Assembly: GCF_056712565.1 (NCBI RefSeq)
Contig: NZ_CM160072.1
Strand: one strand, 5' to 3'
Length of the DNA: 64,000 bases
Shown here: positions 2,598 through 33,522 of the stretch, piece by piece
Layout of the letters: each line of letters opens with the position of its first letter
Position numbering within the stretch: position 1 is the stretch's first letter
Program-made: the position numbers and the translations under genes
Notes under the pieces: generated by a model
The model's database searches: none
Told to the model about the DNA's origin: nothing
Seen by the model: the letters and a program-made list of their open reading frames with translations, nothing else

Positions 2598-2894
2598 ATG
2601 CTGACGAAAGAACCATCATTTGCATCGCTGCTGGTAAAACAAAGCCCGGCAATGCACTACGGTTACGGCTGGATCACGGGTGAGGATGGAAAACGCTGGC
2701 ATCCATGTCATTCACAAGATGAATTGCTGTCTGAATTGACCACGAGGAAACGGAGAAAGTCCAAATGTATGCGGCAGAAAGTGAAGTGGTTTATCAGTTT
2801 CGTTACAGAGGGGAGAGTTATTCAGTACCTGAAGATGATTTGCTCTGTTGCTATCCGTCATTGTCGGGAGATGGCAGTTACTTTTTCACGTTAA
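2598..2894 (+). CDS. Hypothetical early protein (start uncertain; overlaps next ORF)
   Basis: ORF-track frame from ATG 2598 directly after cII stop. Confidence 0.3.
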   Translation: MLTKEPSFASLLVKQSPAMHYGYGWITGEDGKRWHPCHSQDELLSELTTRKRRKSKCMRQKVKWFISFVTEGRVIQYLKMICSVAIRHCREMAVTFSR

Positions 2895-2989
2895 AGGATG
2901 GGACGTTTTTACGGGGAGAGCAGGTTAAAGAGACGATACGAAAAAATGTATCTCCTCTTGAGCGTTACCGTAAGAACAAAGAACGATAG
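2765..2989 (+). CDS. Hypothetical early protein (74 aa)
   Basis: ATG 2765 preceded by GGAG; in early operon. Confidence 0.4.
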   Translation: MYAAESEVVYQFRYRGESYSVPEDDLLCCYPSLSGDGSYFFTLKDGTFLRGEQVKETIRKNVSPLERYRKNKER

Positions 2990-3011
2990 CTGCGTTTGGG
3001 GAATATGAAGT

Positions 3012-3353
3012 ATGGCAATTAATGGCGCTGCAGCAACTGTTCCATTAAGCCCCGGTGAACGCCTGAATGGACTTAATCACATTGCGGAGTTAAGGGCGAA
3101 AGTTTTTGGCCTGAATATTGAGTCAGAGCTTGAGCAGTTTATTAAAGATATGCGTGATCCACGGGATATCAATAATGAACAAAATAAACGGGCACTGGCT
3201 GCCATATTCTTTATGGCAAAAATTCCAGCTGAACGTCATAGCATCAGCATTAATGAGCTGACCACTGACGAAAAGCGGGAGCTGATTAAAGCAATGAATC
3301 ATTTTCGTGCAGTGGTGAGCTTATTTCCCAGACGGCTAACCATGCCGAATTAA
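3012..3353 (+). CDS. Hypothetical early protein (113 aa)
   Basis: ORF in early operon, same strand. Confidence 0.5.
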   Translation: MAINGAAATVPLSPGERLNGLNHIAELRAKVFGLNIESELEQFIKDMRDPRDINNEQNKRALAAIFFMAKIPAERHSISINELTTDEKRELIKAMNHFRAVVSLFPRRLTMPN

Positions 3354-3414
3354 CCAACTAATGAAATTAATGGCGTAAACCCGCCGGGCATCCCTTTATC
3401 TAAATTCAGGAGAA

Positions 3415-3654
3415 TTGATTATGCGTAATATTGAAACCCTCTCGACCAAAACCGGACCGGATGACGCAGGGCTTAATATTTTACTGACAGAGGCTCGTCT
3501 GGAAGAACGCCGGGCAAGAGCAGAGGCAATGGCTGCCCGCCTTGATAGCCTTGCGTGCCATATCACATCCCGCCAGCTAAACCACGTCGAAGCGGCAGAA
3601 CTGCTGCGCGTGACTGCTGAAGCAATCCAGAACGAAGCGCAGGAGATCCACTAA
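3415..3654 (+). CDS. Hypothetical early protein (79 aa)
   Basis: ORF in early operon; stop overlaps next start. Confidence 0.45.
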   Translation: MIMRNIETLSTKTGPDDAGLNILLTEARLEERRARAEAMAARLDSLACHITSRQLNHVEAAELLRVTAEAIQNEAQEIH

Positions 3655-3881
3655 TGGCTGATGCAATGGATCTCGTACAGCAGCGCGTTGAAGAAGAACG
3701 CCAGCGTCATATCCGTGCTGCCCGTGCCAAAACGCCGGGCGTGTCCCGCGTGCTTTGCATTGAGTGTGAAGCGCCAATTCCGCCAGCACGCCGCCGTGCC
3801 ATTCCAGGTGTGCAGCTTTGCATTACCTGTCAGGAAATCGCAGAGCTGAAAGGCAAACATTACAACGGAGGTGCTGTATGA
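3654..3881 (+). CDS. TraR/DksA-family C4 zinc-finger protein
   Basis: CIECEAPIPPARRRAIPGVQLCITC: two CxxC pairs typical of TraR/DksA zinc fingers; ATGA overlap with dam. Confidence 0.7.
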   Translation: MADAMDLVQQRVEEERQRHIRAARAKTPGVSRVLCIECEAPIPPARRRAIPGVQLCITCQEIAELKGKHYNGGAV

Positions 3882-4735
3882 GCACCATCCTGAAATGGGC
3901 GGGAAATAAAACCGCCATTATGTCCGAACTGAAAAAGCATCTTCCTGCTGGCCCGCGACTGGTTGAACCTTTCGCGGGTTCCTGTGCAGTGATGATGGAG
4001 ACGGAGTACCCCAGCTATCTTGTTGCGGATATTAATCCTGATTTAATCAACCTCTATAAAAAGGTTGCTGCTGATTGTGAATCGTTTATATCTCGCGCCA
4101 GAGTTTTATTTGAGATCGCAAACAGGGAGGTGGCTTATTACAACATAAGGAAGGAGTTTAATTACTCAACTGAAATTACTGATTTCATGAAAGCGGTATA
4201 TTTCCTGTATCTCAATCGTCACGGTTACCGTGGTTTATGTCGCTATAACAAGAGCGGGCATTTCAACATTCCCTACGGCAATTATAAAAATCCGTATTTC
4301 CCTGAAAAAGAAATTCGCGCATTTGCAGAAAAAGCCCAGCGAGCAACGTTTATCTGCGCCAGCTTTGATGAAACGCTGGCGATGTTGAAGGCGGGGGATG
4401 TGGTGTATTGCGATCCACCGTATGACGGTACGTTTTCCGGCTATCACACTGACGGCTTCACTGAAGATGACCAGTATCACCTGGCATCTGTTCTTGAACA
4501 TCGGTCATCAGAAGGACATCCGGTCATTGTTTCTAACAGTGACACATCCCTGATCCGTTCGCTGTATCGCAATTTTACTCACCACTATATCAAGGTAAAA
4601 CGCATCATCGGTGTGGCAGCTGGCGAGGGTAAATCAGCAACAGAAATCATTGCTGTTTCCGGGCCGCGCTGCTGGGTGGGATTTGATTATTCGCGTGGCG
4701 TGGATAGTTCTGCCGTGTACGGAGTACGTGCATGA
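3878..4735 (+). CDS. dam: DNA adenine methyltransferase (Dam-like N6-adenine MTase), prophage-encoded
   Basis: N-terminal SAM-binding region KWAGNK...EPFAGS and catalytic DPPY motif (VYCDPPYDG); start ATG 3878 after GGAG. Confidence 0.85.
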
Positions 4736-8615: not shown

Positions 8616-8659
8616 CGTAGATCATGCTCCTGCATGAAAACCACTACATAAAGCGGGCA

Positions 8660-8678
8660 GGCGTGGCGGGGATACGAG
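8660..8678. other. Putative cos (cohesive-end) site of the prophage
   Basis: GGCGTGGCGGGGATACGAG resembles the 19-nt P2/186 cohesive-end sequences as I recall them (GGCGTGGCGGGGA...); lies upstream of portal Q as expected. Confidence 0.45.
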
Positions 8679-8692
8679 CGCGCGCTTGCACC

Positions 8693-8721
8693 TTGATATT
8701 CACGGTTTGGTTAAGTATTGT
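8693..8721 (+). promoter_or_regulatory. Putative sigma70 promoter of the protease operon
   Basis: TTGATA - 17 bp - TATTGT, about 40 bp upstream of ATG 8762. Confidence 0.35.
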
Positions 8722-8761
8722 CTTAGTCAGAGTCCATAACATATTACAGAATGGAGTTGTT

Positions 8762-9409
8762 ATGATTGGTCCTGAATATGTCGTAGTTGTTGGCGTGCTT
8801 AATGCAGGTTTGGTTAGTTTTTTAGGAACAGGTTTTTTTATTTCTAAGGATAAAATAATTACTTCCCGCCATGTTATTAATGGGTTTTCTTCTAACTTAG
8901 TTATTTCTCCATCTAATATAAATAACTTTAATAGTTATCAGGATACAAGTGTTGATAAATTTCAATGTATTGGAGTTGATGTTATTGATGAAGATCCAAT
9001 AAAAGACTTATGTGTGTTAAAAATTAAAAATGCACCTGTTTATGAACCTTGCCTAAAAATTGCTACTCTTGACGATGTTAATGTCGGTGAAGATGTGGGT
9101 ATTTTAGGTTTCCCACATTGTAATGAAAATAGAAAAGTATTGACATTTCAAACGGCAAAAATAGGTGCAAAAGTTTTACTTTCAAGCAGTAATATTCAAT
9201 CTAAACATGCCGTTATAAATATCCAAACCAGACCTGGTCAATCGGGATCGATTGTATTTAATTTAAAAAATGACTCGGTAATAGGCGTCTTGGTTGGCGC
9301 TTATGCAAATAATTCTGGAGGTTCTGTTTTGGTTGGAGGTATTAATCCAGCTGAACTACATCAGACAACTTATGCGGTTTCTGCAGAATATGTTAAGGAT
9401 ATGTTATGA
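8762..9409 (+). CDS. Trypsin-fold (S1/chymotrypsin-like) serine protease, 215 aa; accessory cargo
   Basis: Catalytic triad contexts in order His (ITSRHVING), Asp (DLCVLKI), Ser (RPGQSGSIVF); GGAG RBS; very AT-rich; track ORF 5' extension to 8624 would cross cos. Confidence 0.8.
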   Translation: MIGPEYVVVVGVLNAGLVSFLGTGFFISKDKIITSRHVINGFSSNLVISPSNINNFNSYQDTSVDKFQCIGVDVIDEDPIKDLCVLKIKNAPVYEPCLKIATLDDVNVGEDVGILGFPHCNENRKVLTFQTAKIGAKVLLSSSNIQSKHAVINIQTRPGQSGSIVFNLKNDSVIGVLVGAYANNSGGSVLVGGINPAELHQTTYAVSAEYVKDML

Positions 9410-9852
9410 TTGCTATACCAAATGAAGATGCTGAGTCTTGGTTGTCCACTTTAAAAACGTATCAATCTTCATCTGTCAGGAATTTTCTCGAAAATGGCGA
9501 TGAAGAAAAGGCTCTTGAGCTATGGCTAACTGCATCTGGCCCAAGTTCAGTTGCTCAATTTGGCGGTGATAATTCAAAAATGCCGGGAAGAAAAGCGTTT
9601 GTTGAGCAGTTTAAATTAGAGTTTAAGGCTTTTGTATGTGGAGGTGATAAATATGCAGAGGAGAGGGAATGTTTAGGAGCACTGACTGGTGATGTTAAAA
9701 CATACTTTGTAGGGGTGATCTCTTCGGCAATTGCGGGTTCTTTGGGGGCAACAGCAACATTTATTGCTCCAGCTGTAGTAATTATGTTGATAGCTGTCTC
9801 AAAAATGGGAATTAATGCTTGGTGTTCATTAGAGACAACGACAGAATCTTAG
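9406..9852 (+). CDS. Small protein (148 aa) with C-terminal hydrophobic membrane anchor; partner of the protease
   Basis: ATGA start/stop overlap with protease gene (translational coupling); C-terminal segment YFVGVISSAIAGSLGATATFIAPAVVIMLIAVS is hydrophobic. Confidence 0.7.
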   Translation: MIAIPNEDAESWLSTLKTYQSSSVRNFLENGDEEKALELWLTASGPSSVAQFGGDNSKMPGRKAFVEQFKLEFKAFVCGGDKYAEERECLGALTGDVKTYFVGVISSAIAGSLGATATFIAPAVVIMLIAVSKMGINAWCSLETTTES

Positions 9853-9879: not shown

Positions 9880-10906
9880 ATAAATCATAATGCTGAAATC
9901 GGATAGTTTTCTCACCTAACCATTCATTAACTTCCATTATTCTTTTTTGGAGTGGAATTAGTTCATTTCTAACAAAAACCTTACTCGCCTTCTCCACATC
10001 CCCAAACCCTCCAACATTATTAGGCATTATCCCCATCATTTGTGGCGGCACACGATGCGCCGCCATCATGTCGTCCCGGCTCACGTTCTTGATATTCAGG
10101 AACTCATCCTTCGCCGCCACTTCTGACAACGGGATAATCTGAAGCCCGTCCTTTTTACCGTTAGGCGAGTACATAAACAGGTTACGGAAGTTACCAGGAC
10201 CTTTGGCACTTTTCATCGCGTTGCGGAGATTGTTCACATCCTCCTGATTCTGCGCGGCATCGGTCATATACATGATGAAGCCTGCATGGCTGCCGTTGAT
10301 GTAATACTTGCGGCGGAACAGCGTGGCGGACTTATTGAGCAGGGCTGACGGAATGGCAGAAAGATAGCCGGGCAGGCCGTAGATCTCCTGGTTGATGTCC
10401 GGTTCCATCAGATGAAAAATGCTGCCTTTCGTGAACTGATACGGCTGGGTTGTCATACCGTATTGCACAAACCAGTAGGTATCCAGGTCTAACCCGCGTC
10501 GGGTGTATTTTGCCAGCGCAGGATCAAGGGCGATAACTTCACCGAATCGGTTCGTGCGTTTCTCCAGGTAGGCGTTACCAAATACCAGATAGTCCTGCAC
10601 AAAACGCGAAAAAGCCTGCTGGCTGAGCAGCGGATGAGGGATATAGGTACTGGTCAGAATGTTGCACTTTACTGCAATCGGAGAACTGTGATGCACGGCG
10701 GCGCGGAAGGTGCGCGCCAGTCCGTCAAAGCTGACGGGCGGCTCATACCAGCGATCTGTCTGTACGCATTCCACATAGTCCAGCAGTTCACGGCGGTCCA
10801 GAACAGGAACGGGATCACCGAAGCTGAATGCTTCGGCTGAAGTCTGGCTTTTATGCTGGAGCTGGTTCGTCGACGCAGCGCGGTTCTTCTTACTCTTTCC
10901 CATCAA
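9878..10906 (-). CDS. Q: Portal protein gpQ
   Basis: 342-aa ORF; first leftward late gene; size and position as P2 Q. Confidence 0.9.
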   Translation of the reverse strand: MMGKSKKNRAASTNQLQHKSQTSAEAFSFGDPVPVLDRRELLDYVECVQTDRWYEPPVSFDGLARTFRAAVHHSSPIAVKCNILTSTYIPHPLLSQQAFSRFVQDYLVFGNAYLEKRTNRFGEVIALDPALAKYTRRGLDLDTYWFVQYGMTTQPYQFTKGSIFHLMEPDINQEIYGLPGYLSAIPSALLNKSATLFRRKYYINGSHAGFIMYMTDAAQNQEDVNNLRNAMKSAKGPGNFRNLFMYSPNGKKDGLQIIPLSEVAAKDEFLNIKNVSRDDMMAAHRVPPQMMGIMPNNVGGFGDVEKASKVFVRNELIPLQKRIMEVNEWLGEKTIRFQHYDL

Positions 10907-12630
10907 AAAATCTCCACAATATTACTGGTATTGGCGGACTCGCCCTGCAGTGGTTCGTTAAACAGTGCGTGCATTGTTGCCCAGGCCAGATCGGCGTGGC
11001 TGGCTTCTTCGCTGCGGCTGGCTTCATAGGTCGGGCGGTTGCCGCTGGCGGTGGTTGCGCGACGGATTGCCATGAATGACTGCGCAATGTCGGTGTGTCC
11101 GGCGTCAAACTCCAGACGGCGGTGGCTGATAATGTCGTAGGCCTTGAGTACCAGGGCGTTTTTAACGTTGGGGTTGTAGACAAACTCCCGGACGGCAGGA
11201 AAGAACGCTTTCACGTTCTCATAAACCCCGTGACCGACACCTGTCGAGTCGATGCCGATATATGTCACGTTGTACTGTTCGGTCAGTTTTTTGATGGCGT
11301 CCGCCTGGGCGCGGAAGTCCATCCCGCGCCACTGGTGACGCTCAAGAATACGGAACTTACCGCCCGGCACGGCTGGCGGAGCCACCACCACGCATCCGGC
11401 ACTGTCGCCGTTCTGCGTACCTTTTGCCGGGTCATAACCGATCCACACTTCGCGCCAGCCAAACGGGCGCAGCGCCAGTGCATGAAAGTCGGTCCAGACT
11501 TCCCAGCTGTCCACCATGCACGCCTGCAATTCGCTGAGCGGGAACACAGATGCGAGATCGTCAACGAACTCGCACATCAGCAGGTTCTGGTATTCGTCCG
11601 GGCTGTACTCCATGCGCAACTGGTCGAGGTCGAACAGGTTACAGCCGCCGCGTACCGCATCTTCCACGGTGACTATCTGGCGGTATTGCCCGTCTGCGCA
11701 CAGCAGGCCGGGGGCCAGATTGCTGTGGGACAGGTCGATGTCCACCTTATCGGCTTTGTTGCGCCCACGGTTGAACAACGCGCCGGACCAGAACGGATAA
11801 GCACTGTGGGTCAGGCTGGATGGCGTGGAAAAATAGGTCTGTCGCCATTTCTTGTGAATAGCCATACCGGAAGCCACTTTGCGCAGCTCCTGAAATTTTG
11901 GTATCCAGAAATATTCATCCAGATACAGGTTGCCGTGATAACTCTGGGCCGTGCGGGCATTGGTGCCTAGGAAGTAAAGCGTGGCCCCGTTAGGAAGCAC
12001 CATCGGATCGCCTTTCAGCTCCACCTCCACTTCTTTGGCGAAGTCGATGATGTACTGCTTAAAGACGTGGGCCTGTGCCTTACTGGCGGAAAGGAAAATC
12101 TGGTTACGCCCGGTAAGCAGAGCGTCAATCAGGGCTTCACGGGCAAAGTAAAAGGTTGCGCCGATCTGGCGTGACTTCAGCAGGTTGCGGATGCGGTTGT
12201 TTTTTCCGGCTTCCCACCAGTGGCGCTGGTAGTTGAACATGGAGGAATGGAAGATTTCTTCCAGCTTCTCAATCTGTTCATCGGTGAAAACGTTCTTTTC
12301 CGGCTGACGGCGCGGGCCTTTGTTGCGGTTGGCGACGTTAGGGTTTAAGTCGGCTTCGTTGCCGCCATTGTTAAACTTGCCGATCCGCGCATGGCGCTCC
12401 GACTGGCGCGCCAGCAGGTCAATCTCTTTGAAATCTTTCCCTTCTTTGTGCTCCTTCATAATGAGCTGGCAGTAGCGTGCGGCGGTGGTGAGCTGCATCT
12501 GATCCAGCGGCCCATAGTCACCCCACTTGTCGCGTTTTTTCCAGCTGTTCCAGTAAGTTTTTTCTAACGGAGCACGGCTCATGACAGTGAAAGCAAAGCG
12601 TTTTCGCATCGGGGTGGAAGGTGCCACCAC
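10903..12630 (-). CDS. P: Terminase large (ATPase) subunit gpP; true start probably downstream of 12630
   Basis: 575-aa ORF following Q; ATPase motifs; 5' end overlaps the divergent capsid ORF so start is uncertain. Confidence 0.85.
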   Translation of the reverse strand: MVAPSTPMRKRFAFTVMSRAPLEKTYWNSWKKRDKWGDYGPLDQMQLTTAARYCQLIMKEHKEGKDFKEIDLLARQSERHARIGKFNNGGNEADLNPNVANRNKGPRRQPEKNVFTDEQIEKLEEIFHSSMFNYQRHWWEAGKNNRIRNLLKSRQIGATFYFAREALIDALLTGRNQIFLSASKAQAHVFKQYIIDFAKEVEVELKGDPMVLPNGATLYFLGTNARTAQSYHGNLYLDEYFWIPKFQELRKVASGMAIHKKWRQTYFSTPSSLTHSAYPFWSGALFNRGRNKADKVDIDLSHSNLAPGLLCADGQYRQIVTVEDAVRGGCNLFDLDQLRMEYSPDEYQNLLMCEFVDDLASVFPLSELQACMVDSWEVWTDFHALALRPFGWREVWIGYDPAKGTQNGDSAGCVVVAPPAVPGGKFRILERHQWRGMDFRAQADAIKKLTEQYNVTYIGIDSTGVGHGVYENVKAFFPAVREFVYNPNVKNALVLKAYDIISHRRLEFDAGHTDIAQSFMAIRRATTASGNRPTYEASRSEEASHADLAWATMHALFNEPLQGESANTSNIVEIF

Positions 12631-13930
12631 CGACGGACGCGAAATCCAGCGTGAATGGCTGGAACAGATGGCAGCCAGCTACAACCCGGCGGTGTATACC
12701 GCGCTGATTAACCTTGAGCACATCAAGTCTTATATACCGGACAGCACCTTTAACCGCTACGGCAAGGTGACGGCGCTGTTTGCTGAAGAAATCACGGAAG
12801 GTCCGCTGGCAGGCAAGATGGCGCTGTATGCCGACGTTGAGCCAACGGAGTCCCTGGTGGAACTGGTGAAAAAAGGCCAGAAATTATTCACCTCTATGGA
12901 AGTCAGCCCGAAGTTCGCTGATACGGGCAAAGCCTACCTGGTCGGCCTGGCTGCCACTGATGACCCTGCCAGTCTGGGTACGGAAATGCTGACATTCAGC
13001 GCCAGTGCAGCCCATAACCCGCTGGCAAACCGCAAGCAGAATCCTGCCATGACTGAGCAGTCCGGTCAGCTGCTGGGGCTGGGTGTTGGCAGCACCATTG
13101 CCGGAACCACTGACACCACCGCAAAAGAGCGTGAACCTGTCGATCCGACGCTGATGGTCGATGTGGAATATAAATGCGAGCAGACCAACTTTGACACGGT
13201 GCTGACCTACGCGAAGCTGGACCTGTGGGCGAAGTTTCAGGATTTCCAGGTGCGTATCCGTGACGCCATCGTGAAACGTCAGGCACTGGACCGCATCATG
13301 ATCGGCTTTAACGGCGTGAAGCGTGCGAAAACCTCCAACCGTAGTGAAAACCCGCTGCTGCAGGATGTGAACAAAGGCTGGCTGCAGAAAATCCGTGAGG
13401 ATGCACCGGATCACGTCATGGGCAGCACCACCACGGGCGGCGAAACCACACCGGGTGCGGTGAAAGTCGGTAAAGGGGGCGAATATGCCAACTTGGACGC
13501 TGTGGTGATGGATGCGGTCAATGAGCTTATCGACGTGGTCTACCAGGACGATGACGATCTGGTGGTGATTTGCGGTCGTGAACTGCTGTCTGACAAGTAT
13601 TTCCCGCTGGTCAACAAAGAGCAGGAAAACAGTGAAAAATTGGCAGCCGATATGATTATCAGTCAGAAACGCATGGGCGGTCTGCAGGCCGTGCGTGCGC
13701 CGTTCTTCCCGCCGAATGCGCTGCTGATCACCCGTCTGGATAACCTGTCCATCTACTGGCAGGAAGACACCCGCCGCCGTTCAGTTATCGACAACCCGAA
13801 ACGTGACCGGATTGAAAACTTTGAATCCGTTAACGAAGCCTATGTGGTTGAGGACTACCGCTGCGCCGCACTGGTGGAAAACATCCAGATTGGTGATTTC
13901 AGCGCCGCCGCAGCCGAAACCGGAGCGTAA
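12581..13930 (+). CDS. Capsid protein with N-terminal gpO-like scaffold/protease region and C-terminal gpN-like major-capsid region in one 449-aa ORF
   Basis: N-terminus FRIGVEGATTDGR resembles P2 gpO start as I recall it; C-terminal half LITRLDNLSIYWQE...DNPKRDRIENFES...VVEDY resembles P2 gpN; single uninterrupted frame. Confidence 0.75.
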   Translation: MTVKAKRFRIGVEGATTDGREIQREWLEQMAASYNPAVYTALINLEHIKSYIPDSTFNRYGKVTALFAEEITEGPLAGKMALYADVEPTESLVELVKKGQKLFTSMEVSPKFADTGKAYLVGLAATDDPASLGTEMLTFSASAAHNPLANRKQNPAMTEQSGQLLGLGVGSTIAGTTDTTAKEREPVDPTLMVDVEYKCEQTNFDTVLTYAKLDLWAKFQDFQVRIRDAIVKRQALDRIMIGFNGVKRAKTSNRSENPLLQDVNKGWLQKIREDAPDHVMGSTTTGGETTPGAVKVGKGGEYANLDAVVMDAVNELIDVVYQDDDDLVVICGRELLSDKYFPLVNKEQENSEKLAADMIISQKRMGGLQAVRAPFFPPNALLITRLDNLSIYWQEDTRRRSVIDNPKRDRIENFESVNEAYVVEDYRCAALVENIQIGDFSAAAAETGA

Positions 13931-17965: not shown

Positions 17966-19924
17966 ATGATAGTAGGGATTTTTTTAAGGTATTTTAAAAC
18001 ATACAACGGAAATCATTACATACCGTTATCTTCTGGAAGTCAGTTTTGTGGAATTGTTGGTAACAATGGAATTGGCAAAAGTTCTGTTCTTGAGGCTTTA
18101 GATTCGTTTATTAATAACAAACCATGGAATATTAATTCTTCATTTAAAAGAACCTCCAGTGACAGACCTTCTCCACATATTGTTCCTTTATATCTTATAA
18201 AGCGAGAGGAATTACATGAAGATCATCATGCTAAAGCTGAAATCTTAACGCAATTAGTATTAGAATATAGCAATAGTAATGCTGATGTTACATTGACGCC
18301 AACAACACGAAATATAATTAATACGTTTTTTGAACATATTAACAAATTAAAAAGAAATTTAAATCTCCAAGATTATTTTTTGATCCCTCTGGGTGTCGAG
18401 AAAGATGGTGATGTAAGTATTTCGATTCTTAATGGGAAGAGTTTATGTCGACTTTTGGAGGTTGATAATCCCGATAATAAAGTTTCGAGCGAGTTGCTTA
18501 GTAAGCACTTTGGGTATTTATTACATCATGTCCGCCATAAGTATGAATATATATATATTCCAAAGGATATAGACTCTGAATCGTTTACGAAGCTAGAAAC
18601 AAGTGAAGTACAAAAGTTGATGGGTGAGTCTTTAGAGCAGATAATTAAAGATAGAATATCTGATAGAACCATAAGTCAAATCAATACAGGGCTTGCCAAA
18701 TTTCTGGATGGTGTTGAAGAGGAGCTTGAAGAATATGGTTATAGAACATCTGGCGAGAGACAATCGCGATTAAAAAAGAAAGATGTTTATAATTTGATTA
18801 TCGAAGCATTCTTCAAAGTTAGGAAATTAAATAAAAAGCAGAATTCAGGTTGGATTGAAATTAGCTCGCTAAGTTCAGGGGAGAAGCAACGTGCAATAAT
18901 GGATATTGCATATGGGTTTCTTACCAATCATAGAGAAAATGGCGATAATCTGATTATTGGAATTGATGAGCCAGAATGTTCTCTTCATATGTCTGCATGT
19001 TTTGAACAATTTGAAAAGCTCTATTCTATTAGTGGTATATGTGAACAATTAATATTTACTTCACATTGGTATGGCTATCTTCCAACCGTCGAAAATGGAT
19101 GTACCACAACTATCCTTAAAACAGATTCAACTCATCATTTTGAATTATATGATCTTGCCAGTTATAGAGAAGAAGTCAGGAAGAAAGTAAAAACCTCTTC
19201 CCCGGGTATGCCATTTGATATAAAAATAAAAAGTGTAAATGACCTTATACAATCCATAATATCTAGCTGTTTGGCTGAGAAACCTTACAATTGGTTGATT
19301 TGTGAGGGTACTACAGAAAAAATATATCTTTCGCATTATCTAAAGGACTTGGTAGAAAATAAAAGGCTAAGGATTGTGCCTGTAGGGGGAGCTAGTGAAG
19401 TTAAAAAAATATTTAAGCATTTAGAAGCTTCTTATGAAGAGTTCAAAAAAGACCTCAAAGGAAAAGTGTTCTTACTAACCGATACAGATTCAGAGTTGGT
19501 GTCATATGATACCCCAGTTATGCCGCATGTTGTTTGTAAGCGAATTGTTAGTGTAGGTGATTCAGTGAAGTTGGTTGATATTTCTTCCAATCCAGTTTCT
19601 CCTGCAACAGAAATAGAGGATTGTCTTAATCCTGTATCGTTTATAGAGGCTTTAACATCATTTTCTTCACGTTTTCCTGAGCTTCAGGCATTGCTGCCTA
19701 ATAGTAATGTTATGATAGATGAAAGACATTCATCGTTTGCTGCGATGGATTTGTCACCCAAGAACAAAAAAACGCTTGATGCTTTTTTTGACCGTGAAGG
19801 AATTAAGTTTGATTTTTCAAAGGAATATATTTCAATCTGTGAGCGAAATGAGCGGAAAAGGCCAGAGTGGATTGCCAAAATTGAAAATTTTTTTATAAGT
19901 GATAAACCTGTAAAGTTTAATTGA
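17966..19924 (+). CDS. OLD-family ATP-dependent nuclease (ABC ATPase + TOPRIM), 652 aa; accessory defence-type cargo
   Basis: Walker A GNNGIGKSS, ABC signature LSSGEKQ, Walker B LIIGIDEPE, H-loop FTSHW; C-terminal TOPRIM-like WLICEGTTE and LLTDTDSE; same motif layout as host YbjD in this window; AT-rich. Confidence 0.85.
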   Translation: MIVGIFLRYFKTYNGNHYIPLSSGSQFCGIVGNNGIGKSSVLEALDSFINNKPWNINSSFKRTSSDRPSPHIVPLYLIKREELHEDHHAKAEILTQLVLEYSNSNADVTLTPTTRNIINTFFEHINKLKRNLNLQDYFLIPLGVEKDGDVSISILNGKSLCRLLEVDNPDNKVSSELLSKHFGYLLHHVRHKYEYIYIPKDIDSESFTKLETSEVQKLMGESLEQIIKDRISDRTISQINTGLAKFLDGVEEELEEYGYRTSGERQSRLKKKDVYNLIIEAFFKVRKLNKKQNSGWIEISSLSSGEKQRAIMDIAYGFLTNHRENGDNLIIGIDEPECSLHMSACFEQFEKLYSISGICEQLIFTSHWYGYLPTVENGCTTTILKTDSTHHFELYDLASYREEVRKKVKTSSPGMPFDIKIKSVNDLIQSIISSCLAEKPYNWLICEGTTEKIYLSHYLKDLVENKRLRIVPVGGASEVKKIFKHLEASYEEFKKDLKGKVFLLTDTDSELVSYDTPVMPHVVCKRIVSVGDSVKLVDISSNPVSPATEIEDCLNPVSFIEALTSFSSRFPELQALLPNSNVMIDERHSSFAAMDLSPKNKKTLDAFFDREGIKFDFSKEYISICERNERKRPEWIAKIENFFISDKPVKFN

Positions 19925-19958: not shown

Positions 19959-20006
19959 CTAACCTCTAACCTCTAACCTCTAACCTCTAACCTCTAACCT
20001 CTAACC
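19959..20006. repeat. Heptanucleotide tandem repeat (CTAACCT) x ~6.9
   Basis: Six perfect CTAACCT units plus CTAACC read directly from the sequence; intergenic between cargo gene and V promoter. Confidence 0.95.
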
Positions 20007-20034: not shown

Positions 20035-20052
20035 TGTATCTTCTTTTATACA
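20035..20052 (+). promoter_or_regulatory. Putative Ogr-dependent late promoter element upstream of V
   Basis: TGT-N12-ACA dyad (TGTatcttcttttatACA), the conserved activator site of P2 late promoters; P2 has a late promoter before V. Confidence 0.5.
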
Positions 20053-21929: not shown

Positions 21930-22527
21930 TCTGCTGCCACTGGGTTCAACTTCACTGGAGCGCCGACTGGCGCAGACCTGTAGCGGGATTTCTGATCTGC
22001 AGGTGCCGCTGCGTGACTTGTGGAATCCGGCAACCTGTCCGGTCAGTTTCCTGCCTTATCTCGCCTGGGCGTTCTCTGTGGATCGCTGGGACGAGGGCTG
22101 GACAGAAAGCGTCAAGCGCCAGGTGGTGAAGGATGCTTTTTATATTCATCAGCATAAAGGGACCACCAGTGCCGTGCGGCGGGTGGTGGAGCCGTTCGGC
22201 TTTCTGATCCGCATTATTGAGTGGTGGCAGACCGGAGAGACTCCGGGCACGTTTCGTCTGGATATCGGCGTGCAGGACCAGGGCATCACTGAAGATACCT
22301 ATCTGGAACTTGAGCGACTGATAAGCGATGCCAAACCATGTAGCCGTCACATGATCGGCATGTCCATCAACCTGCAGACCAGCGGCCCGCATTGGGTGGG
22401 AGCTGCCAGCTATCTTGGCGAAGAAATCACGATCTATCCGTATATCAACGAAACAATTATTTCCGGCGGCACCGCGCATGAAGGCGGAGCGGTCCATGTT
22501 ATTGACACAATGAGAGTGAATCCATGA
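21922..22527 (+). CDS. I: Baseplate/tail-fibre attachment protein gpI
   Basis: 201 aa; synteny. Confidence 0.8.
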   Translation: MNSLLPLGSTSLERRLAQTCSGISDLQVPLRDLWNPATCPVSFLPYLAWAFSVDRWDEGWTESVKRQVVKDAFYIHQHKGTTSAVRRVVEPFGFLIRIIEWWQTGETPGTFRLDIGVQDQGITEDTYLELERLISDAKPCSRHMIGMSINLQTSGPHWVGAASYLGEEITIYPYINETIISGGTAHEGGAVHVIDTMRVNP

Positions 22528-23930
22528 GCACAAAATTTTATACCCTGCTGACGGATATTGGCGCGGCGAAACTCGCCAGCGCCGCCGCGCTCGGTGTGCC
22601 TTTAAAAATTACCCATATGGCGGTCGGCGATGGCGGCGGAACATTGCCAACGCCGGACGCCAAGCAGACAGCATTGGTAAATGAGAAACGCCGGGCTGCG
22701 CTGAATATGCTCTATATCGACCCGCAGAACAGCAGCCAGATTATTGCTGAACAGGTGATCCCTGAAAATGAGGGTGGTTGGTGGATACGTGAAGTGGGCC
22801 TGTTTGATGAGTCCGGGGTATTGATTGCCGTGGGAAACTGCCCGGAAAGCTATAAGCCGCAACTGGCTGAAGGCAGCGGGCGTACCCAGACCGTGCGCAT
22901 GGTGCTGATTACCAGCAGTACGGACAATATCACCCTGAAAATCGACCCTGCTGTAGTACTGGCAACTCGCAAGTATGTGGATGATAAGGCACTGGAGCTG
23001 AAGGTGTATGTGGATGACCAAATGGCAAAACACCTTGCCGCAGCGGACCCACATTCACAGTATGCGCCAAAAGCCAGCCCGATATTTACCGGAACCCCCA
23101 AAGCGCCGACGCCAGCGGCGGGGAATAATACCACGCAACTTGCGACCACCGCGTTTGTTCAGGCGGCACTGACGGCCCTTATTAATGGTGCGCCAGCCAC
23201 GCTGGACACGCTAAAAGAAATAGCCGCAGCCATTAACAATGATCCGAAATTCAGTACCACCATTAACAATGCGCTGGCACTGAAAGCGCCGCTGTCGAGT
23301 CCGGCACTCACCGGAACGCCAACAGCCCCTACTGCCGCACAGTCGGTTAACAATACACAGATTGCCACTACGGCTTTTGTGAAATCGGCGATTGCAGCAA
23401 TGGTGGGGTCTGCACCTGCGGCACTGGATACATTGAACGAACTGGCGGCGGCGCTGGGGAATGACCCGAACTTTGCCACGACAATGCTTAATGCGCTAGC
23501 AGGTAAACAACCGCTGGACAATACGCTGACTAATTTGAGTGGAAAGGATGTTGCTGGTCTTCTCGCATACCTTGGTTTAGGAGAAGCGGCGAAAAGGGAT
23601 GTGGGCACAGGAGATAATCAGATACCGGATATGTCTTTCTGGTCTTCCGCATCGGGTGGCGTTAATTTCCCTAATGGATTCCAGATGCGATTCGGTGCTA
23701 TCGCTGGTAATGGTGGAAAATTATTTTCTACGCCATTTACAAATCAGTGCTATGGCATTGTTTTCGGACAAACATATGGAGCCAACTACTGGATGTTCAG
23801 CCCGATGTACAGAGCATCTGATCTGAGTAATACCAGTTTTGCATTCATTAACAAAGCCTGGTCTGGAATTCCGGGGACAGGTGCTCAGGACGCTGGTGAA
23901 TCAGTTTTTTATATTGCAGTAGGGTATTAA
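22524..23930 (+). CDS. H: Tail fibre protein gpH (constant N-terminal part joined to currently expressed variable C-terminal part)
   Basis: 468 aa with Ala/Thr-rich repeats (TTAFVQAALTAL, TTAFVKSAIAAM); crossover site inside the gene. Confidence 0.85.
   Translation: MSTKFYTLLTDIGAAKLASAAALGVPLKITHMAVGDGGGTLPTPDAKQTALVNEKRRAALNMLYIDPQNSSQIIAEQVIPENEGGWWIREVGLFDESGVLIAVGNCPESYKPQLAEGSGRTQTVRMVLITSSTDNITLKIDPAVVLATRKYVDDKALELKVYVDDQMAKHLAAADPHSQYAPKASPIFTGTPKAPTPAAGNNTTQLATTAFVQAALTALINGAPATLDTLKEIAAAINNDPKFSTTINNALALKAPLSSPALTGTPTAPTAAQSVNNTQIATTAFVKSAIAAMVGSAPAALDTLNELAAALGNDPNFATTMLNALAGKQPLDNTLTNLSGKDVAGLLAYLGLGEAAKRDVGTGDNQIPDMSFWSSASGGVNFPNGFQMRFGAIAGNGGKLFSTPFTNQCYGIVFGQTYGANYWMFSPMYRASDLSNTSFAFINKAWSGIPGTGAQDAGESVFYIAVGY
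23560..23585. other. Inversion crossover site (gix/hix-like), left
   Basis: TTCTCGCATACCTTGGTTTAGGAGAA fits the Din-invertase site pattern TTnTCnnAAACCnnGGTTTnnGAnAA (one mismatch); inverted copy at 25351. Confidence 0.6.
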
Positions 23931-23931
23931 T

Positions 23932-24375
23932 ATGGAAATGGTTTATAGCGCCTCAAATAATAGTTTTTTCGCTAAAAATGATGTGGCGAAATATGAACAG
24001 GCCGGATGGGAACTTGCTGATATTGTCGAAGTGACATATGACACTTACCTGGAATTTATTGAAGACAGAACGTTGCAAGGGAAAGTACGCATCGCGGGTG
24101 ATGATGGCCTTCCCACCTGGGGGGAAATTCCACCGCCAACTCATGAGGAACAAATTGCCGCAGCCGAACTGGAAAAGCAGCAATTGATTAATCAGGTCAA
24201 CGAATACATATACAGTAAGCAATGGCCTGGTAAAGCAGCGATTGGTCGCCTGAAAGGTGAGGAACTGGCGCAATATAATTTGTGGCTGGATTATCTGGAC
24301 GCACTGGAACTGGTTGATACCTCCAGTGCTCCAGATATTGAATGGCCTACGCCTCCGGCAGTTCAGGCCAGATGA
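23932..24375 (+). CDS. Tail fibre assembly protein (orientation-1 copy)
   Basis: 147 aa ending ...DIEWPTPPAVQAR, like Tfa chaperones; follows H. Confidence 0.75.
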   Translation: MEMVYSASNNSFFAKNDVAKYEQAGWELADIVEVTYDTYLEFIEDRTLQGKVRIAGDDGLPTWGEIPPPTHEEQIAAAELEKQQLINQVNEYIYSKQWPGKAAIGRLKGEELAQYNLWLDYLDALELVDTSSAPDIEWPTPPAVQAR

Positions 24376-24949
24376 CGTCCGGCGCTGTGCTGGTATCTGT
24401 TGCCGTCACCGCATCAATGTAATCCAGCACAGCGTTAAGTCGGGTGTTTTCTGTCTGCGTCAGCTTCCGCCCGGCCTGCAATTTCAGTTGAATCAGACTA
24501 ATGGAAGCCATTGCAGTATCAATCAGTGACTGACGCTGTGCTTCTGCCGCGTCTAGTGTGGCGCTATGCTGTGCCTCAGTATCTGTCACCCATTTCTCAC
24601 CATCCCATTCATCGTATGGCGTTAACGGGGCGATAGTGGTTGTATTTTCAGGGTAATCACCTGGTGCTGTGATTTCTTTTGATTCTCCTGTTTCGGTGCT
24701 AAAAACGATTTCACCGCGATGGTCTGGCACATATTCCCATGAGTTAAAATCTGCAGAACGGCAGATTGCATAACCAGCTTTACATGTAACTGGTGAATCT
24801 AAACAGGAATATGCAGGGATACCGACACCAATGGCAAGATATTCATTTGAAGTAGAAATATATTCCCGAGTTTTACCATCATAGTTATAGACGGTAATAT
24901 TCCCCGCCTTCGTGGCAATAATCTCGCTATTTAATACGGCGTTATCCAT
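24347..24949 (-). CDS. Tail fibre assembly protein (alternative, orientation-2 copy)
   Basis: 200 aa; C-terminus ...APDVIWPELPEA mirrors the other Tfa; opposite strand inside invertible segment. Confidence 0.7.
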   Translation of the reverse strand: MDNAVLNSEIIATKAGNITVYNYDGKTREYISTSNEYLAIGVGIPAYSCLDSPVTCKAGYAICRSADFNSWEYVPDHRGEIVFSTETGESKEITAPGDYPENTTTIAPLTPYDEWDGEKWVTDTEAQHSATLDAAEAQRQSLIDTAMASISLIQLKLQAGRKLTQTENTRLNAVLDYIDAVTATDTSTAPDVIWPELPEA

Positions 24950-25404
24950 TATGCAGCCCTTACGATATAGTTAAATGCAATATTTCGTGGACGGGTTTCG
25001 CTTCCGCCATATGATGATGTAAATCCCGAATATGCCCGGTGTCCCGCATCCGTCGTATTAGCCCAGGAAGGACCGCTAGAAGTATAGATGACCCCATTGT
25101 AATCATGGCCGTGTGCCTCAATGCTCCCGTCCTGAGCAGACAGGAGAGTCCGTCCTGAATCAATTCCTCTTCCATCATCCCACCCACGAATGAATTCGCC
25201 GCGTAAATCTGGCAATTTATTTGTCGGATAAACTTTTGCCAGTTCCGGATACTCTTCGGCAGAAAAAGCTGCACCGTTGCATTTCAGCCAGCCTGTTGGC
25301 GGTGTGACTGAAGGCCACGGAACAGGCACACCTACGGGTAATGCAGAGCCTTCTCCTAAACCAACGTTTAAGAAAATGCAGCGATTACGACTAACTGGCA
25401 TCAT
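24949..25404 (-). CDS. Alternative tail-fibre C-terminal variable segment (expressed after inversion)
   Basis: 151-aa minus-strand ORF; shares GLGE junction with H at the crossover site. Confidence 0.7.
   Translation of the reverse strand: MMPVSRNRCIFLNVGLGEGSALPVGVPVPWPSVTPPTGWLKCNGAAFSAEEYPELAKVYPTNKLPDLRGEFIRGWDDGRGIDSGRTLLSAQDGSIEAHGHDYNGVIYTSSGPSWANTTDAGHRAYSGFTSSYGGSETRPRNIAFNYIVRAA
25351..25376. other. Inversion crossover site (gix/hix-like), right
   Basis: TTCTCCTAAACCAACGTTTAAGAAAA; inverted repeat of the site at 23560; adjacent to invertase gene. Confidence 0.6.
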
Positions 25405-25431
25405 CCCCGGTTTTTATTCAAGGAGATGATC

Positions 25432-25998
25432 ATGCTTATTGGCTATGTACGCGTGTCAACAAATGACCAGAACACCGATTTGCAACGTAGTGCGCTGAAC
25501 TGCGCGGGATGTGAGCGGATTTTTGAGGACAAAATCAGTGGCACTAAGTCCGACAGACCGGGGCTTAAAAAACTGCTCAGGACACTATCGGCAGGTGACA
25601 CACTGGTTGTCTGGAAGCTGGACAGGTTGGGGCGCAGTATGCGGCATCTTGTTACGCTGATAGAAGAGTTGCGCCAGCGCGGCGTGAATTTCCGAAGTCT
25701 GACTGACAGTATTGATACCAGTACCCCAATGGGCAGTTTCTTTTTTCATGTCATGGGTGCCCTGGCTGAAATGGAACGCGAACTGATAGTTGAACGTACC
25801 AGGGCAGGGCTGGCTGCAGCTCGTGCTAAAGGCAGAGTAGGTGGACGCCGTCCTAAGTTGACTACCGAACAGTGGGCACAGATTGGGCGTTTACTCGAGG
25901 CCGGAGAATCAAGACAGCGTATTGCACTGATTTTTGATGTAGGCGTTTCTACCATTTATAGAAAATTTCCGGCAAATAAGAGCAATGAATCTCCCTGA
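25432..25998 (+). CDS. Serine DNA invertase (Gin/Pin/Hin family)
   Basis: MLIGYVRVSTNDQNTDLQR...VVWKLDRLGRSM... nearly collinear with Mu Gin as I recall it; catalytic Ser in YVRVST; AGGAG RBS. Confidence 0.9.
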   Translation: MLIGYVRVSTNDQNTDLQRSALNCAGCERIFEDKISGTKSDRPGLKKLLRTLSAGDTLVVWKLDRLGRSMRHLVTLIEELRQRGVNFRSLTDSIDTSTPMGSFFFHVMGALAEMERELIVERTRAGLAAARAKGRVGGRRPKLTTEQWAQIGRLLEAGESRQRIALIFDVGVSTIYRKFPANKSNESP

Positions 25999-26046
25999 AT
26001 CAGCTTTATTTTGATTATCCCTGAAAGCAGACAAATACCGTCATTT

Positions 26047-26064
26047 TGTGTGAATAACGGTACA
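26047..26064 (+). promoter_or_regulatory. Putative Ogr-dependent late promoter element upstream of FI
   Basis: TGT-N12-ACA dyad (TGTgtgaataacggtACA) about 80 bp upstream of FI ATG. Confidence 0.5.
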
Positions 26065-26140
26065 ACTGCGCTTAGCTGTTTGTCAGGCACAATCACTTCA
26101 ACATAGGGCGAAGCCTAATCCAATCAGGAGGTTCGCCACT

Positions 26141-27313
26141 ATGGCTCAGGATTACCACCACGGAGTGCGCGTTGTTGAAGTCAACGAAGGCACCCGATCC
26201 ATTACCACGGTGAGCACCGCCATCGTGGGTATGGTCTGCACGGGCGATGATGCCGATGCAAAAATGTTTCCTCTTAATAAACCCGTGCTGATCACTGATG
26301 TGCTGACTGCCAGCGGTAAAGCGGGCGAGTCCGGTACGCTGGCCCGTTCGCTGGATGCCATCGCTGACCAGGCAAAACCCGTGACCGTTGTTGTGCGTGT
26401 GCCGCAGGGTGAAACGGAAGAAGAAACCACGACCAATATCATCGGCGCAGTGACTGCTGAAGGTAAAAAAACAGGCATGAAAGCCCTGTTATCTGCCCAG
26501 TCACAGCTCGGCGTTAAACCGCGCATTCTCGGCGTGCCAGGTCACGACACGAAGGCGGTAGCTACTGAGTTGCTGAGCGTGGCGCAAAGCCTGCGTGGAT
26601 TTGCTTACCTGTCAGCGTATGGTTGCAAGACGGTGCAGGAAGCAATCACTTACCGTGAAAACTTCAGTCAGCGTGAAGGAATGCTGATCTGGCCCGACTT
26701 TACTGGCTGGGACACGGTGCTGAATGCCGAAGCAACGGCTTATGCCACCGCCCGTGCGCTTGGTCTGCGCGCCAAAATTGACGAGCAGACCGGATGGCAC
26801 AAAAGCCTGTCCAACGTAGGCGTTAACGGTGTCACCGGAATTTCTGCTGATGTGTTCTGGGATCTGCAGGACCCGGCAAGCGATGCGGGACTGCTGAACC
26901 AGAACGACGTCACCACCCTTATCCGCAAAGACGGTTTTCGCTTCTGGGGTTCCCGCTGCCTGAGTGATGACCCGCTCTTTGCCTTCGAAAACTACACCCG
27001 CACGGCGCAGGTGCTGACGGACACAATGGCAGAAGCGCACATGTGGGCAGTGGACAAACCGCTGAACCCGTCGCTGGCGCGCGACATTATCGAGGGCATC
27101 CGCGCCAAAATGCGCAGCCTGGTCAGTCAGGGGTATCTCATTGGTGGTGATTGCTGGCTGGATGAGTCGGTGAACGACAAAGACACTCTGAAAGCCGGAA
27201 AACTCACCATCGACTACGACTACACGCCAGTGCCGCCACTTGAAAACCTGATGTTGCGTCAGCGCATCACCGATCAGTACCTGGTGAATTTCGCCAGCCA
27301 GGTCAGCGCGTAA
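26141..27313 (+). CDS. FI: Tail sheath protein gpFI
   Basis: 390 aa; synteny FI-FII-E-T-U-D. Confidence 0.9.
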
Positions 27314-33068: not shown

Positions 33069-33287
33069 ATGATGATTTGCCCACTGTGTGGAAGTGCCGC
33101 CCATACTCGCAGCAGTTTTCAGGTATCTTCATTGACCAAAGAGCGTTATAACCAGTGCCAGAACATTAACTGCAGCCATACTTTTGTTACCCATGAAACT
33201 TTTGTTCGTTCGATTGCAACACCAAAAGAGTCTAATCCAGTTCAGCCGCATCCAATGAAATCAGGACAGGTGGCGCTCTCTCTTTGA
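33069..33287 (+). CDS. ogr: Ogr late-gene transcriptional activator (zinc finger)
   Basis: MMICPLCGSAAHTRSS...CQNINCSHTF: Cys4 zinc-binding pattern as in P2 Ogr; last prophage gene. Confidence 0.8.
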   Translation: MMICPLCGSAAHTRSSFQVSSLTKERYNQCQNINCSHTFVTHETFVRSIATPKESNPVQPHPMKSGQVALSL

Positions 33288-33365
33288 CGCTGCCGCCATT
33301 TTGTCGCCATCGTTAAAAAACAGTGCTTCTAACATCATGATTTTAAACATCTTAAATTTCAGGCA

Positions 33366-33410
33366 ACAAAAAACCCATCAACCTTGAACCGAAATGGCGG
33401 GGTTGATGGG
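33366..33410 (-). terminator. Hairpin with T-tract on minus strand; ybjL terminator and/or part of the prophage-host junction
   Basis: CCCATCAACC ... GGTTGATGGG inverted repeat, A-run on plus-strand 5' side. Confidence 0.4.
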
Positions 33411-33522
33411 CTCCACAAAATGGGGACATCAAAGAAAAGCAGTGGCACTAATTAAGACTGATGCCCTGCGGAAAAGTTCTGCGGTTGTGCAAAAAAATTT
33501 CATTTTCAGGGCAACTTCAGTT

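Follow-up and report, generated by a model that had tools for sequence, protein, structure and literature searches.

A very probable two-state, Din-family tail-fibre switch in a P2/186-like prophage of Escherichia coli

The DNA considered here is a stretch of 64,000 nucleotides (nt) of Escherichia coli chromosome (contig NZ_CM160072.1 of assembly GCF_056712565.1; hereafter the window, to whose first letter all positions refer), of which about 33.3 kb from position 1 are a P2/186-like prophage. Taken as a whole, the analysis identifies a region of this prophage, with high confidence, as a two-state invertible tail-fibre cassette of the Din family (Pin/Gin/Cin-type). Since the work on phages Mu and P1, tail-fibre switches that flip a DNA segment have been a known type, and E. 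coli prophages commonly carry them. In the window, the constant 5′ part of the fibre gene H lies outside a segment bounded by two inverted crossover sites, two opposed in-frame 3′ parts of the gene lie inside it, and the gene of a serine DNA invertase follows. An earlier note, made from the sequence alone, had described a pair of inverted 26-bp Din-type sites around about 1.8 kb, with an H tip and its chaperone (Tfa) on the plus strand and their alternatives on the minus strand, a junction shared at a GLGE motif and a Gin-like serine invertase next door, and each of these descriptions was borne out. The features concerned are the following, where amino acids are abbreviated as aa and open reading frame as ORF.

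22524-23930, plus strand: tail-fibre gene H in its current orientation (ORF, 468 aa)
22524-23571, plus strand: constant N-terminal part of H (aa 1-349), outside the segment (ORF; Pfam)
23560-23585, no strand assigned: left 26-bp crossover site (pix/gix-like), central TT at 23572-23573, encoding ...LLAYLGLGE inside H
23572-25364, no strand assigned: invertible segment, 1,793 bp when measured from one central dinucleotide to the other
23574-23930, plus strand: variable tip Sv, now fused to H, 115 aa (PHROG 2557 over H aa 257-468)
23932-24375, plus strand: assembly chaperone U/Tfa of the current tip, 147 aa (PHROG 188, tail fiber assembly protein, E 5e-57)
24347-24949, minus strand: alternative chaperone U′, 200 aa, silent in this orientation (PHROG 105, E 2e-95)
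24949-25362, minus strand: alternative promoterless tip Sv′, 137 aa from the shared GLGE (in-frame fusion; Collar; StfE-like)
25351-25376, no strand assigned: right 26-bp crossover site, central AA at 25363-25364
25432-25998, plus strand: Din-family serine DNA invertase, 188 aa, RefSeq WP_000905071.1 (Pfam; PHROG 125, DNA invertase)
25453-25516, no strand assigned: candidate recombinational enhancer inside the invertase gene, with two Fis-core-like 15-mers (G-N13-C) at gene nt 22-36 and 71-85

The two sites are imperfectly palindromic, lie in inverted orientation and have an identical central dinucleotide. The left site, TTCTCGCATACCTTGGTTTAGGAGAA, divides into TTCTCGCATACC-TT-GGTTTAGGAGAA, and the right site, TTCTCCTAAACCAACGTTTAAGAAAA, into TTCTCCTAAACC-AA-CGTTTAAGAAAA; the central TT and AA thus match once the sites are placed in register, as inversion needs. 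Their inner 15 nt, TTGGTTTAGGAGAAG, are the same in both, and the outer halves differ. Each site shows a single mismatch to the Din-type pattern given in the earlier note, which also recovers gixL and gixR, pixL and pixR, and cixL in the reference loci. At up to three mismatches on both strands of the 64 kb, these two places were the sole matches to that pattern (0.01 expected), and two matches were obtained in none of 100 shuffles of the window. The pair is likewise the longest and first-listed inverted repeat between 22000 and 27000, with arms of 27 nt that are 81% complementary. The first base of the right site stands 81 nt, and its last base (25376) 55 nt, before the ATG of the invertase gene. 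Full-site and half-site probes revealed no third site in the window, and a third or cryptic site, as in a shufflon-like system of the kind seen in enteropathogenic E. coli (EPEC), was rejected on the finding of only two sites there. Rfam and tRNA scans gave no match inside the module, and a sigma-70 consensus scan of 22300-26300 for orientation-dependent promoters did not rise above shuffle expectation.

The reading frames fit such a switch in both states. H opens as a P2-type fibre, with Pfam Phage_tail_fib (PF12571, E 8e-65) over aa 1-150 and an N-terminus 54% identical to that of P2 H, and its constant part is a mosaic in which a block of 160 aa (aa 181-340) is 80% identical to the constant part of P1 S. 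When 23572-25364 was reverse-complemented in silico, an uninterrupted in-frame H′ of 487 aa resulted, as against 468 aa now; the two fibres have aa 1-353 in common, the shared part ends in GLGE, and both tips join the constant part directly after ...AYLGLGE. Beyond that junction the tips are unrelated to each other, since the flipped H′ carries a Pfam Collar domain (PF07484, E 1.6e-13) at aa 361-408, whereas Sv has no Pfam domain. Sv also found no match among the tips of Mu, P1, P2 and e14; a likeness of the window tips to those of Mu, P1 and P2 was sought and rejected. The stop codon of H′ overlaps the start of the second chaperone, and there is one assembly chaperone for each tip, the PHROG 188 protein being TfaP-like (the C-terminal 100 aa of U are 56% identical to e14 TfaP) and the PHROG 105 protein TfaE-like (U′ is 88% identical to e14 TfaE). 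Sv′ itself is 62% identical to e14 StfE. Neither the chaperones nor the invertase reached an NCBIfam family above its cut-off.

The invertase pairs a Resolvase domain (PF00239, E 1.6e-52, aa 5-137) with an HTH_7 domain (PF02796, E 2.8e-15, aa 140-183), matches the Gin crystal structure 3UJ3 at E 2.9e-91, and is 84% identical to e14 PinE, 76% to P1 Cin and 72% to Mu Gin. All of its catalytic residues are kept (Y5, R7, S9, D64, R65 and R68), and the motifs YVRVS and KLDRLGRS are intact. In Din systems the enhancer normally consists of two Fis sites about 48 bp apart, acting in cis at the 5′ end of the invertase gene. The two candidate Fis cores of the window have centres 49 nt apart and fall within the stretch that is annotated as enhancer in P1 cin (nt 19-90), across which the invertase gene, gin, cin and pinE align gap-free; core 2 recurs in all three reference genes, core 1 only in gin and pinE, as its counterpart in cin ends in A. 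Over 73 distinct gene sequences, synonymous codon entropy was 0.40 bits in codons 7-30 versus 0.65 elsewhere (one-sided Mann-Whitney p 0.006), and codons 9-12 each use one codon. Such reduced synonymous variation may point to an embedded cis element containing the candidate Fis sites, but the support is weak, given the relatedness of the sequences and the overlap with the codons of the active site.

That the segment inverts is seen by comparing otherwise identical prophages among 5,426 complete E. coli genomes, which were searched with both new junctions (601 nt each) of a flipped form built in silico. The window orientation (23000-26140) is present at 100% identity in three genomes (APEC 16-1068, AH21G053 and AH19D088), and a further seven (SF-468, MS15052, APEC E16002, APEC E18006, 10035004-3, UID2404240036 and OZ546991) each match both flipped junctions at 100% and full length, so that otherwise identical prophages occur in both states, 3:7. 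The genome of SF-468 agrees with the flipped window over 12,601 bp with 0 mismatches, while every difference from the unflipped window lies inside 23587-25349, strictly between the sites; homology breakpoints confine the crossover to 15 identical nt, 23572-23586, which include the central TT. The RefSeq accession of the invertase is identical in the two orientation classes. Some part of the 3.1-kb module is matched in 2,941 of the 5,426 genomes, and this particular tip pair is uncommon, at least 80% of the 3.1-kb query being covered in only 8 of them.

A wider set of relatives behaves similarly. The invertase, used to scan IMG/VR, led to 80 loci, mostly at 97-99% protein identity and on P2-like contigs of 30-40 kb. 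Exactly two sites are present in 60 of the 80; where there are fewer, a contig end mostly truncates the locus. In nearly all 80 the distance from the start of the right site to the ATG is 81 nt, and in most the left site is TTCTC[G/A]CATACCTTGGTTTGGGAGAA, 1.1-3.6 kb upstream. When classed by the strand of the cassettes homologous to those of the window, the two arrangements stand at 20:20. Thus the segment does invert, be it by the local invertase or by another. The earlier note had looked to a single orientation, a mutated catalytic serine or unconserved repeats as signs against a switch; instead, both orientations are found among otherwise identical prophages, Ser9 is intact, and the sites are kept in the IMG/VR relatives. 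One of these loci (L066) has three sites (at 332, 2014 and 3920), two of the left type in direct orientation plus the right site, and so resembles the three-repeat EPEC system.

It could be argued that the inverted repeat arose by chance or that the orientation differences are artefacts of assembly. Short-read assemblers can misorient segments flanked by repeats, and three IMG/VR contigs (L031, L039 and L065) end exactly 49 nt outside a site (position 50), some with mirrored flanks; it seems that these assemblies broke because both orientations were present in the population that was sequenced. However, repeats of 26 bp are far shorter than reads, the pattern is expected only 0.01 times per window, the sites recur at fixed spacing in the 60 relatives just mentioned, and the ten complete genomes divide between the two states with exact breakpoints inside the sites. 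The argument is effectively refuted.

The comparison of the module with the Mu G and P1 C segments, made in the earlier note, holds for the layout and not for the closest kinship, as the nearest relative by sequence comparison is the e14 P segment with its Pin, rather than Mu or P1. In E. coli K-12 the P segment (stfP/tfaP/tfaE/stfE/pinE) matches the module in layout and approximately in size (~1.8 kb), and over window positions 24220-25893 the DNA is 82-89% identical to tfaP-tfaE-stfE-pinE; the e14-like right part of the module thereby takes in the 3′ end of U, U′, Sv′, the right site and the invertase. The e14 sites pixL and pixR differ from the window sites at few positions, with the TT core in common, and the outer half of the right site resembles pixR. 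The two systems differ in that Sv and the N-terminal half of U have no e14 counterpart, and in that the e14 fibre gene is a 5′-truncated remnant in a defective element, whereas H in the window is a full-length P2-type gene in a P2/186-like late operon. With the Mu G segment the module shares a constant part (Sc) with Sv/U and Sv′/U′ cassettes between two 26-bp sites, and an invertase gene directly downstream on the same strand with the enhancer (a candidate in the window) in its 5′ end; however, the G segment measures ~3 kb, the gix core is TC/GA as opposed to TT/AA in the window, the tips are unrelated, and Gin is the most distant of the three invertases compared. The P1 C segment follows the same logic, with a TT core in cixL in addition to the gap-free enhancer stretch and the S block described above, but it is 4.2 kb long, its Cin is again less similar than PinE, and cin stands on the far side of the segment from the S constant part (the Sv′ side, next to cixL).

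Switches of this type have already been described in the same phage family. In EPEC E2348/69, sequencing and PCR revealed inversion in two P2-like prophages, one a two-state and the other a three-site system, with segments of ~1.8-2.2 kb whose orientations coexist in cultures (Goldberg et al., 2014; PMC4272514). According to its citation in that paper, Fels-2 of Salmonella, with Fin, is a further P2-like prophage with an invertible fibre segment. Compared with the window by description, the EPEC and Fels-2 switches use the same slot, between the fibre genes and FI. A DNA invertase and inversion of adjacent genes are often seen at the P2 Z/fun hotspot (bioRxiv 10.1101/2024.10.15.618418), and the sequenced P2-like phages Cartapus, 500465-1, pro483, KP12 and others have an annotated DNA invertase at the same place. 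Since inversion in P2-like prophages is published and an invertase is common at this slot, the system is already known. As related in PMC4272514, inversion in carotovoricin Er (Nguyen et al., 2001), which has a P2-type contractile tail, changes both the fibre C-terminus and the target range; on that account carotovoricin Er is a domesticated tail-only particle, whereas the window element keeps its portal, capsid and terminase genes, albeit damaged. Finally, PinQ, the Pin of one prophage, was found in 2025 to invert the e14 segment in trans, and the chimeric StfE2 fibre that results from PinQ-driven inversion of the P segment is reported to block adsorption of T2 (PMC12529663).

The prophage in which the module sits extends from an integrase gene, cut by the start of the window, and CI to an ogr/Delta-like gene. 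RefSeq annotation of an identical region gives the order CI, CII, A, Q, P, O, N, M, L, X, lysis genes, R, S, V, W, J, I, H, FI, FII, E, T, U, D and ogr, and this P2 gene order, together with P2-family structural genes, places the element among the P2-like (Peduoviridae) prophages. On its 3′ side follow the small RNA (sRNA) gene rybB, ybjL, and then core genes including grxA, nfsA, potFGHI, artPIQMJ, poxB and hcp. Two motifs appear to delimit the late operons on either side of the switch:

20035-20052, plus strand: candidate Ogr-type late-promoter activator site, TGT-N12-ACA, 5′ of baseplate gene V (motif search)
26047-26064, plus strand: candidate late-promoter activator site, TGT-N12-ACA, 5′ of tail sheath gene FI, the pF equivalent (motif; compare the annotated pF site of P2)

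The first is the presumed start of a V-W-J-I-H-chaperone late operon, a function that its position would suit by analogy with P2 late-promoter logic, the P2 record annotating an activator site for pF. The second forms the right border of the inserted module. With these motifs 5′ of V and of FI, the module sits between the late operons V and F, at the place of fun(Z) in P2; P2 itself has fun(Z), and no invertase, between G and FI, which agrees with the statement in the earlier note that canonical P2 lacks an invertase here.

These elements allow the mechanism established for the Din family to be proposed here as well, in which invertase dimers would bind both crossover sites and, with Fis on the enhancer (the first ~90 nt of the invertase gene), would assemble an invertasome on supercoiled DNA. 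Ser9 of each of four subunits would cut one strand to give double-strand breaks, staggered by 2 nt, at both central dinucleotides, after which half of the complex would turn through 180 degrees and the ends would be rejoined. The late promoter 5′ of V would then drive expression of the tip and chaperone that face H at the time, and a lysogen population would therefore release particles of two adsorption specificities. An alternate scenario is that the switch serves the host, the chimeric fibre of one orientation blocking other phages as StfE2 does T2 in e14. The likeness of Sv′ to StfE and of U′ to TfaE, the e14-like sites and invertase, and the published precedent (PMC12529663) are compatible with this scenario. 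However, H lies in a late operon behind an Ogr-type site and should therefore be silent in the lysogen, and it is full-length with a baseplate-binding N-terminus, unlike the truncated stfP of e14, which makes a host-defence role very unlikely.

The phage that the switch would serve is damaged in this copy, which does not amount to a complete, potentially inducible genome. Two deletions in the head genes, each absent from all 10 sister genomes and each with short microhomology at its junction, have produced altered reading frames:

10903-12630, minus strand: shortened terminase ORF (231-bp deletion)
12581-13930, plus strand: scaffold-capsid fusion ORF (~558-bp deletion)

With the 231 bp missing at 12548/12549, terminase gpP has lost ~40 codons at its start, and the divergent P/O promoter region is gone together with its activator motif; no TGT-N12-ACA remains between P and O. 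The ~558 bp missing at ~13046-13049 leave scaffold gpO (aa ~154) fused in frame to capsid gpN (aa ~60). Neither junction was found in any of the 5,426 complete genomes or in any IMG/VR contig, and the deletions may therefore be very recent, or an artefact of the assembly or sequence of the source. If they are real, the prophage can neither make heads nor express the O operon, and what the earlier note called a host-range switch may not now serve a viable phage. It is accordingly possible, though on balance doubtful, that the switch is a relic in this genome, intact only because decay of a head-defective prophage is recent; the two deletions and the lost activator motif are what speak for it. 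On the other hand, in the region of the tail, fibre and invertase genes this copy does not differ by a single base from prophages whose head genes are intact, the rarity of the deletions leaves them open to being very recent or artefactual, and the relic proposal concerns the present use of the module, not what the module is. A reading of the element as a tailocin was rejected, as the deletion has taken away the O-operon promoter, on which the genes for lysis and tail completion would depend, and long-term decay is not seen in the head genes that are left.

Several observations weigh against the interpretation of the region as a working two-state switch of this phage. With its terminase 5′ end, P/O promoter and parts of scaffold and capsid lost, this copy probably cannot release phage. 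The support for inversion comes from comparison across genomes, and a change of host range may be expected only by analogy with Mu and P1 and from the unrelatedness of the tips. The conservation of the candidate Fis sites overlaps strongly conserved codons. No convincing sigma-70 promoter for the invertase was seen, and the consensus scan gave none between the right site and the ATG. The substitutions N20S and R102S are the sole differences of the invertase from the consensus of 64 close relatives, of which 62 have Asn20 and 63 have Arg102. Moreover, the inversions cannot be assigned to the local invertase, because each carrier genome holds 2-4 places homologous to the module.

The last two of these points admit a more specific proposal, that the segment is flipped in trans by other Din invertases (e14 Pin, or those of P2-like or Mu-like prophages) and that the local enzyme is impaired by N20S and R102S. 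Din invertases are known to be interchangeable. Both substituted residues are invariant in Gin, Cin and PinE, the homologous places in the carrier genomes could supply an enzyme, and the window sites are near-identical to the pix sites of e14, on whose segment PinQ acts in trans (PMC12529663). Against this stand the intact catalytic residues of the local invertase and the occurrence of both orientations in genomes with this exact allele. In addition, the allele with Ser20 and Ser102 is kept, with two synonymous differences, in an IMG/VR locus whose flanks have diverged by 3-4% (L009, IMGVR_UViG_2778261424_000007), which suggests purifying selection. Flipping in trans with an impaired local enzyme is thus unlikely, and the region is better read as a two-state cassette with its own invertase.

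The same substitutions invite a bolder conjecture. Codon 20 occupies window positions 25489-25491 and codon 102 positions 25735-25737; the N20S codon turns TAATG into TAGTG within the enhancer spacer, and position 102 aligns with gamma-delta K105 and Tn3 Q105 at the start of helix E. Activating, accessory-factor-independent resolvase mutations cluster at the start of helix E. Neither PMC4513852 nor PMC3798978 mentions the residue that corresponds to Hin Arg103. The allele could be a regulatory variant, as opposed to a neutral or damaged one, and, taken with the loss of head genes beside a perfect fibre switch, it could be the sign of an element on its way to a host-serving role, although we hold this to be improbable. 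Were it true, a Pin might flip segments elsewhere in the genome, or a fibre chimera might block other phages, as for PinQ and e14.

The locus L009 is of separate interest for the boundaries of exchange. At 2790-3960 its invertible segment has been replaced by a single non-invertible glycine-rich tip with its chaperone, and only the outer half-sites are left; homology to the window stops just past the left core (window 23578) and resumes at the right central dinucleotide (window 25363). The invertase is an orphan there, and the crossover sites mark the boundaries of cassette exchange.

Recognition of the two-state cassette adds no new biology, as it is established how such switches work, what family they form and that P2-like prophages carry them; its use is mainly in annotation. 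RefSeq labels the products merely "phage tail protein", "tail fiber assembly protein" and "recombinase family protein", and in genome comparisons the flipped state resembles a rearrangement or a different fibre protein. Once the switch is recognised, the 'different' H of identical prophages is explained, WP_072199275 being that of the window and WP_000104770 that of the flipped form. The silent tips are treated unevenly by current annotation. The Sv′ ORF (24949-25404, minus strand) is lengthened by a fortuitous ATG beyond the right site, and RefSeq calls Sv′ a stand-alone 150-aa 'phage tail protein' (coding sequence 24949-25401); genomes in the flipped state list the other silent tip as no more than a partial pseudogene or hypothetical protein.

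Elsewhere in the prophage, two places carry genes that resemble defence genes. An S1-peptidase-like protein (8624-9409, plus strand) matches the PADLOC candidate defence protein PDC-M35A (E 8e-94), and its 148-aa partner (9406-9852, plus strand) matches PDC-M35B (E 4e-58); the pair lies in the old/tin hotspot of P2, with the replication gene on one side and the portal gene on the other. Between the virion-morphogenesis gene S and baseplate gene V, a 652-aa ATPase (17966-19924, plus strand) matches AriA (E 1e-21) and Old (E 2e-11), and its gene probably belongs to the OLD/PARIS-like defence genes. The window and SF-468 have an intact copy, and in APEC 16-1068 it is annotated as two coding sequences, consistent with a frameshift. 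A perfect 7-bp tandem repeat (CTAACCT x 6.9) occupies 19959-20006, between a terminator-like hairpin that follows the ATPase gene and the V late promoter, and in APEC 16-1068 this interval appears to be longer by 7 bases, or one repeat unit, judging from coordinate offsets. At the right end of the prophage, after the ogr-like gene (33069-33287), rybB (33365-33443, minus strand; Rfam RF00110, 105 bits) adjoins the element directly, and the attachment site is probably at or in the 3′ end of rybB.

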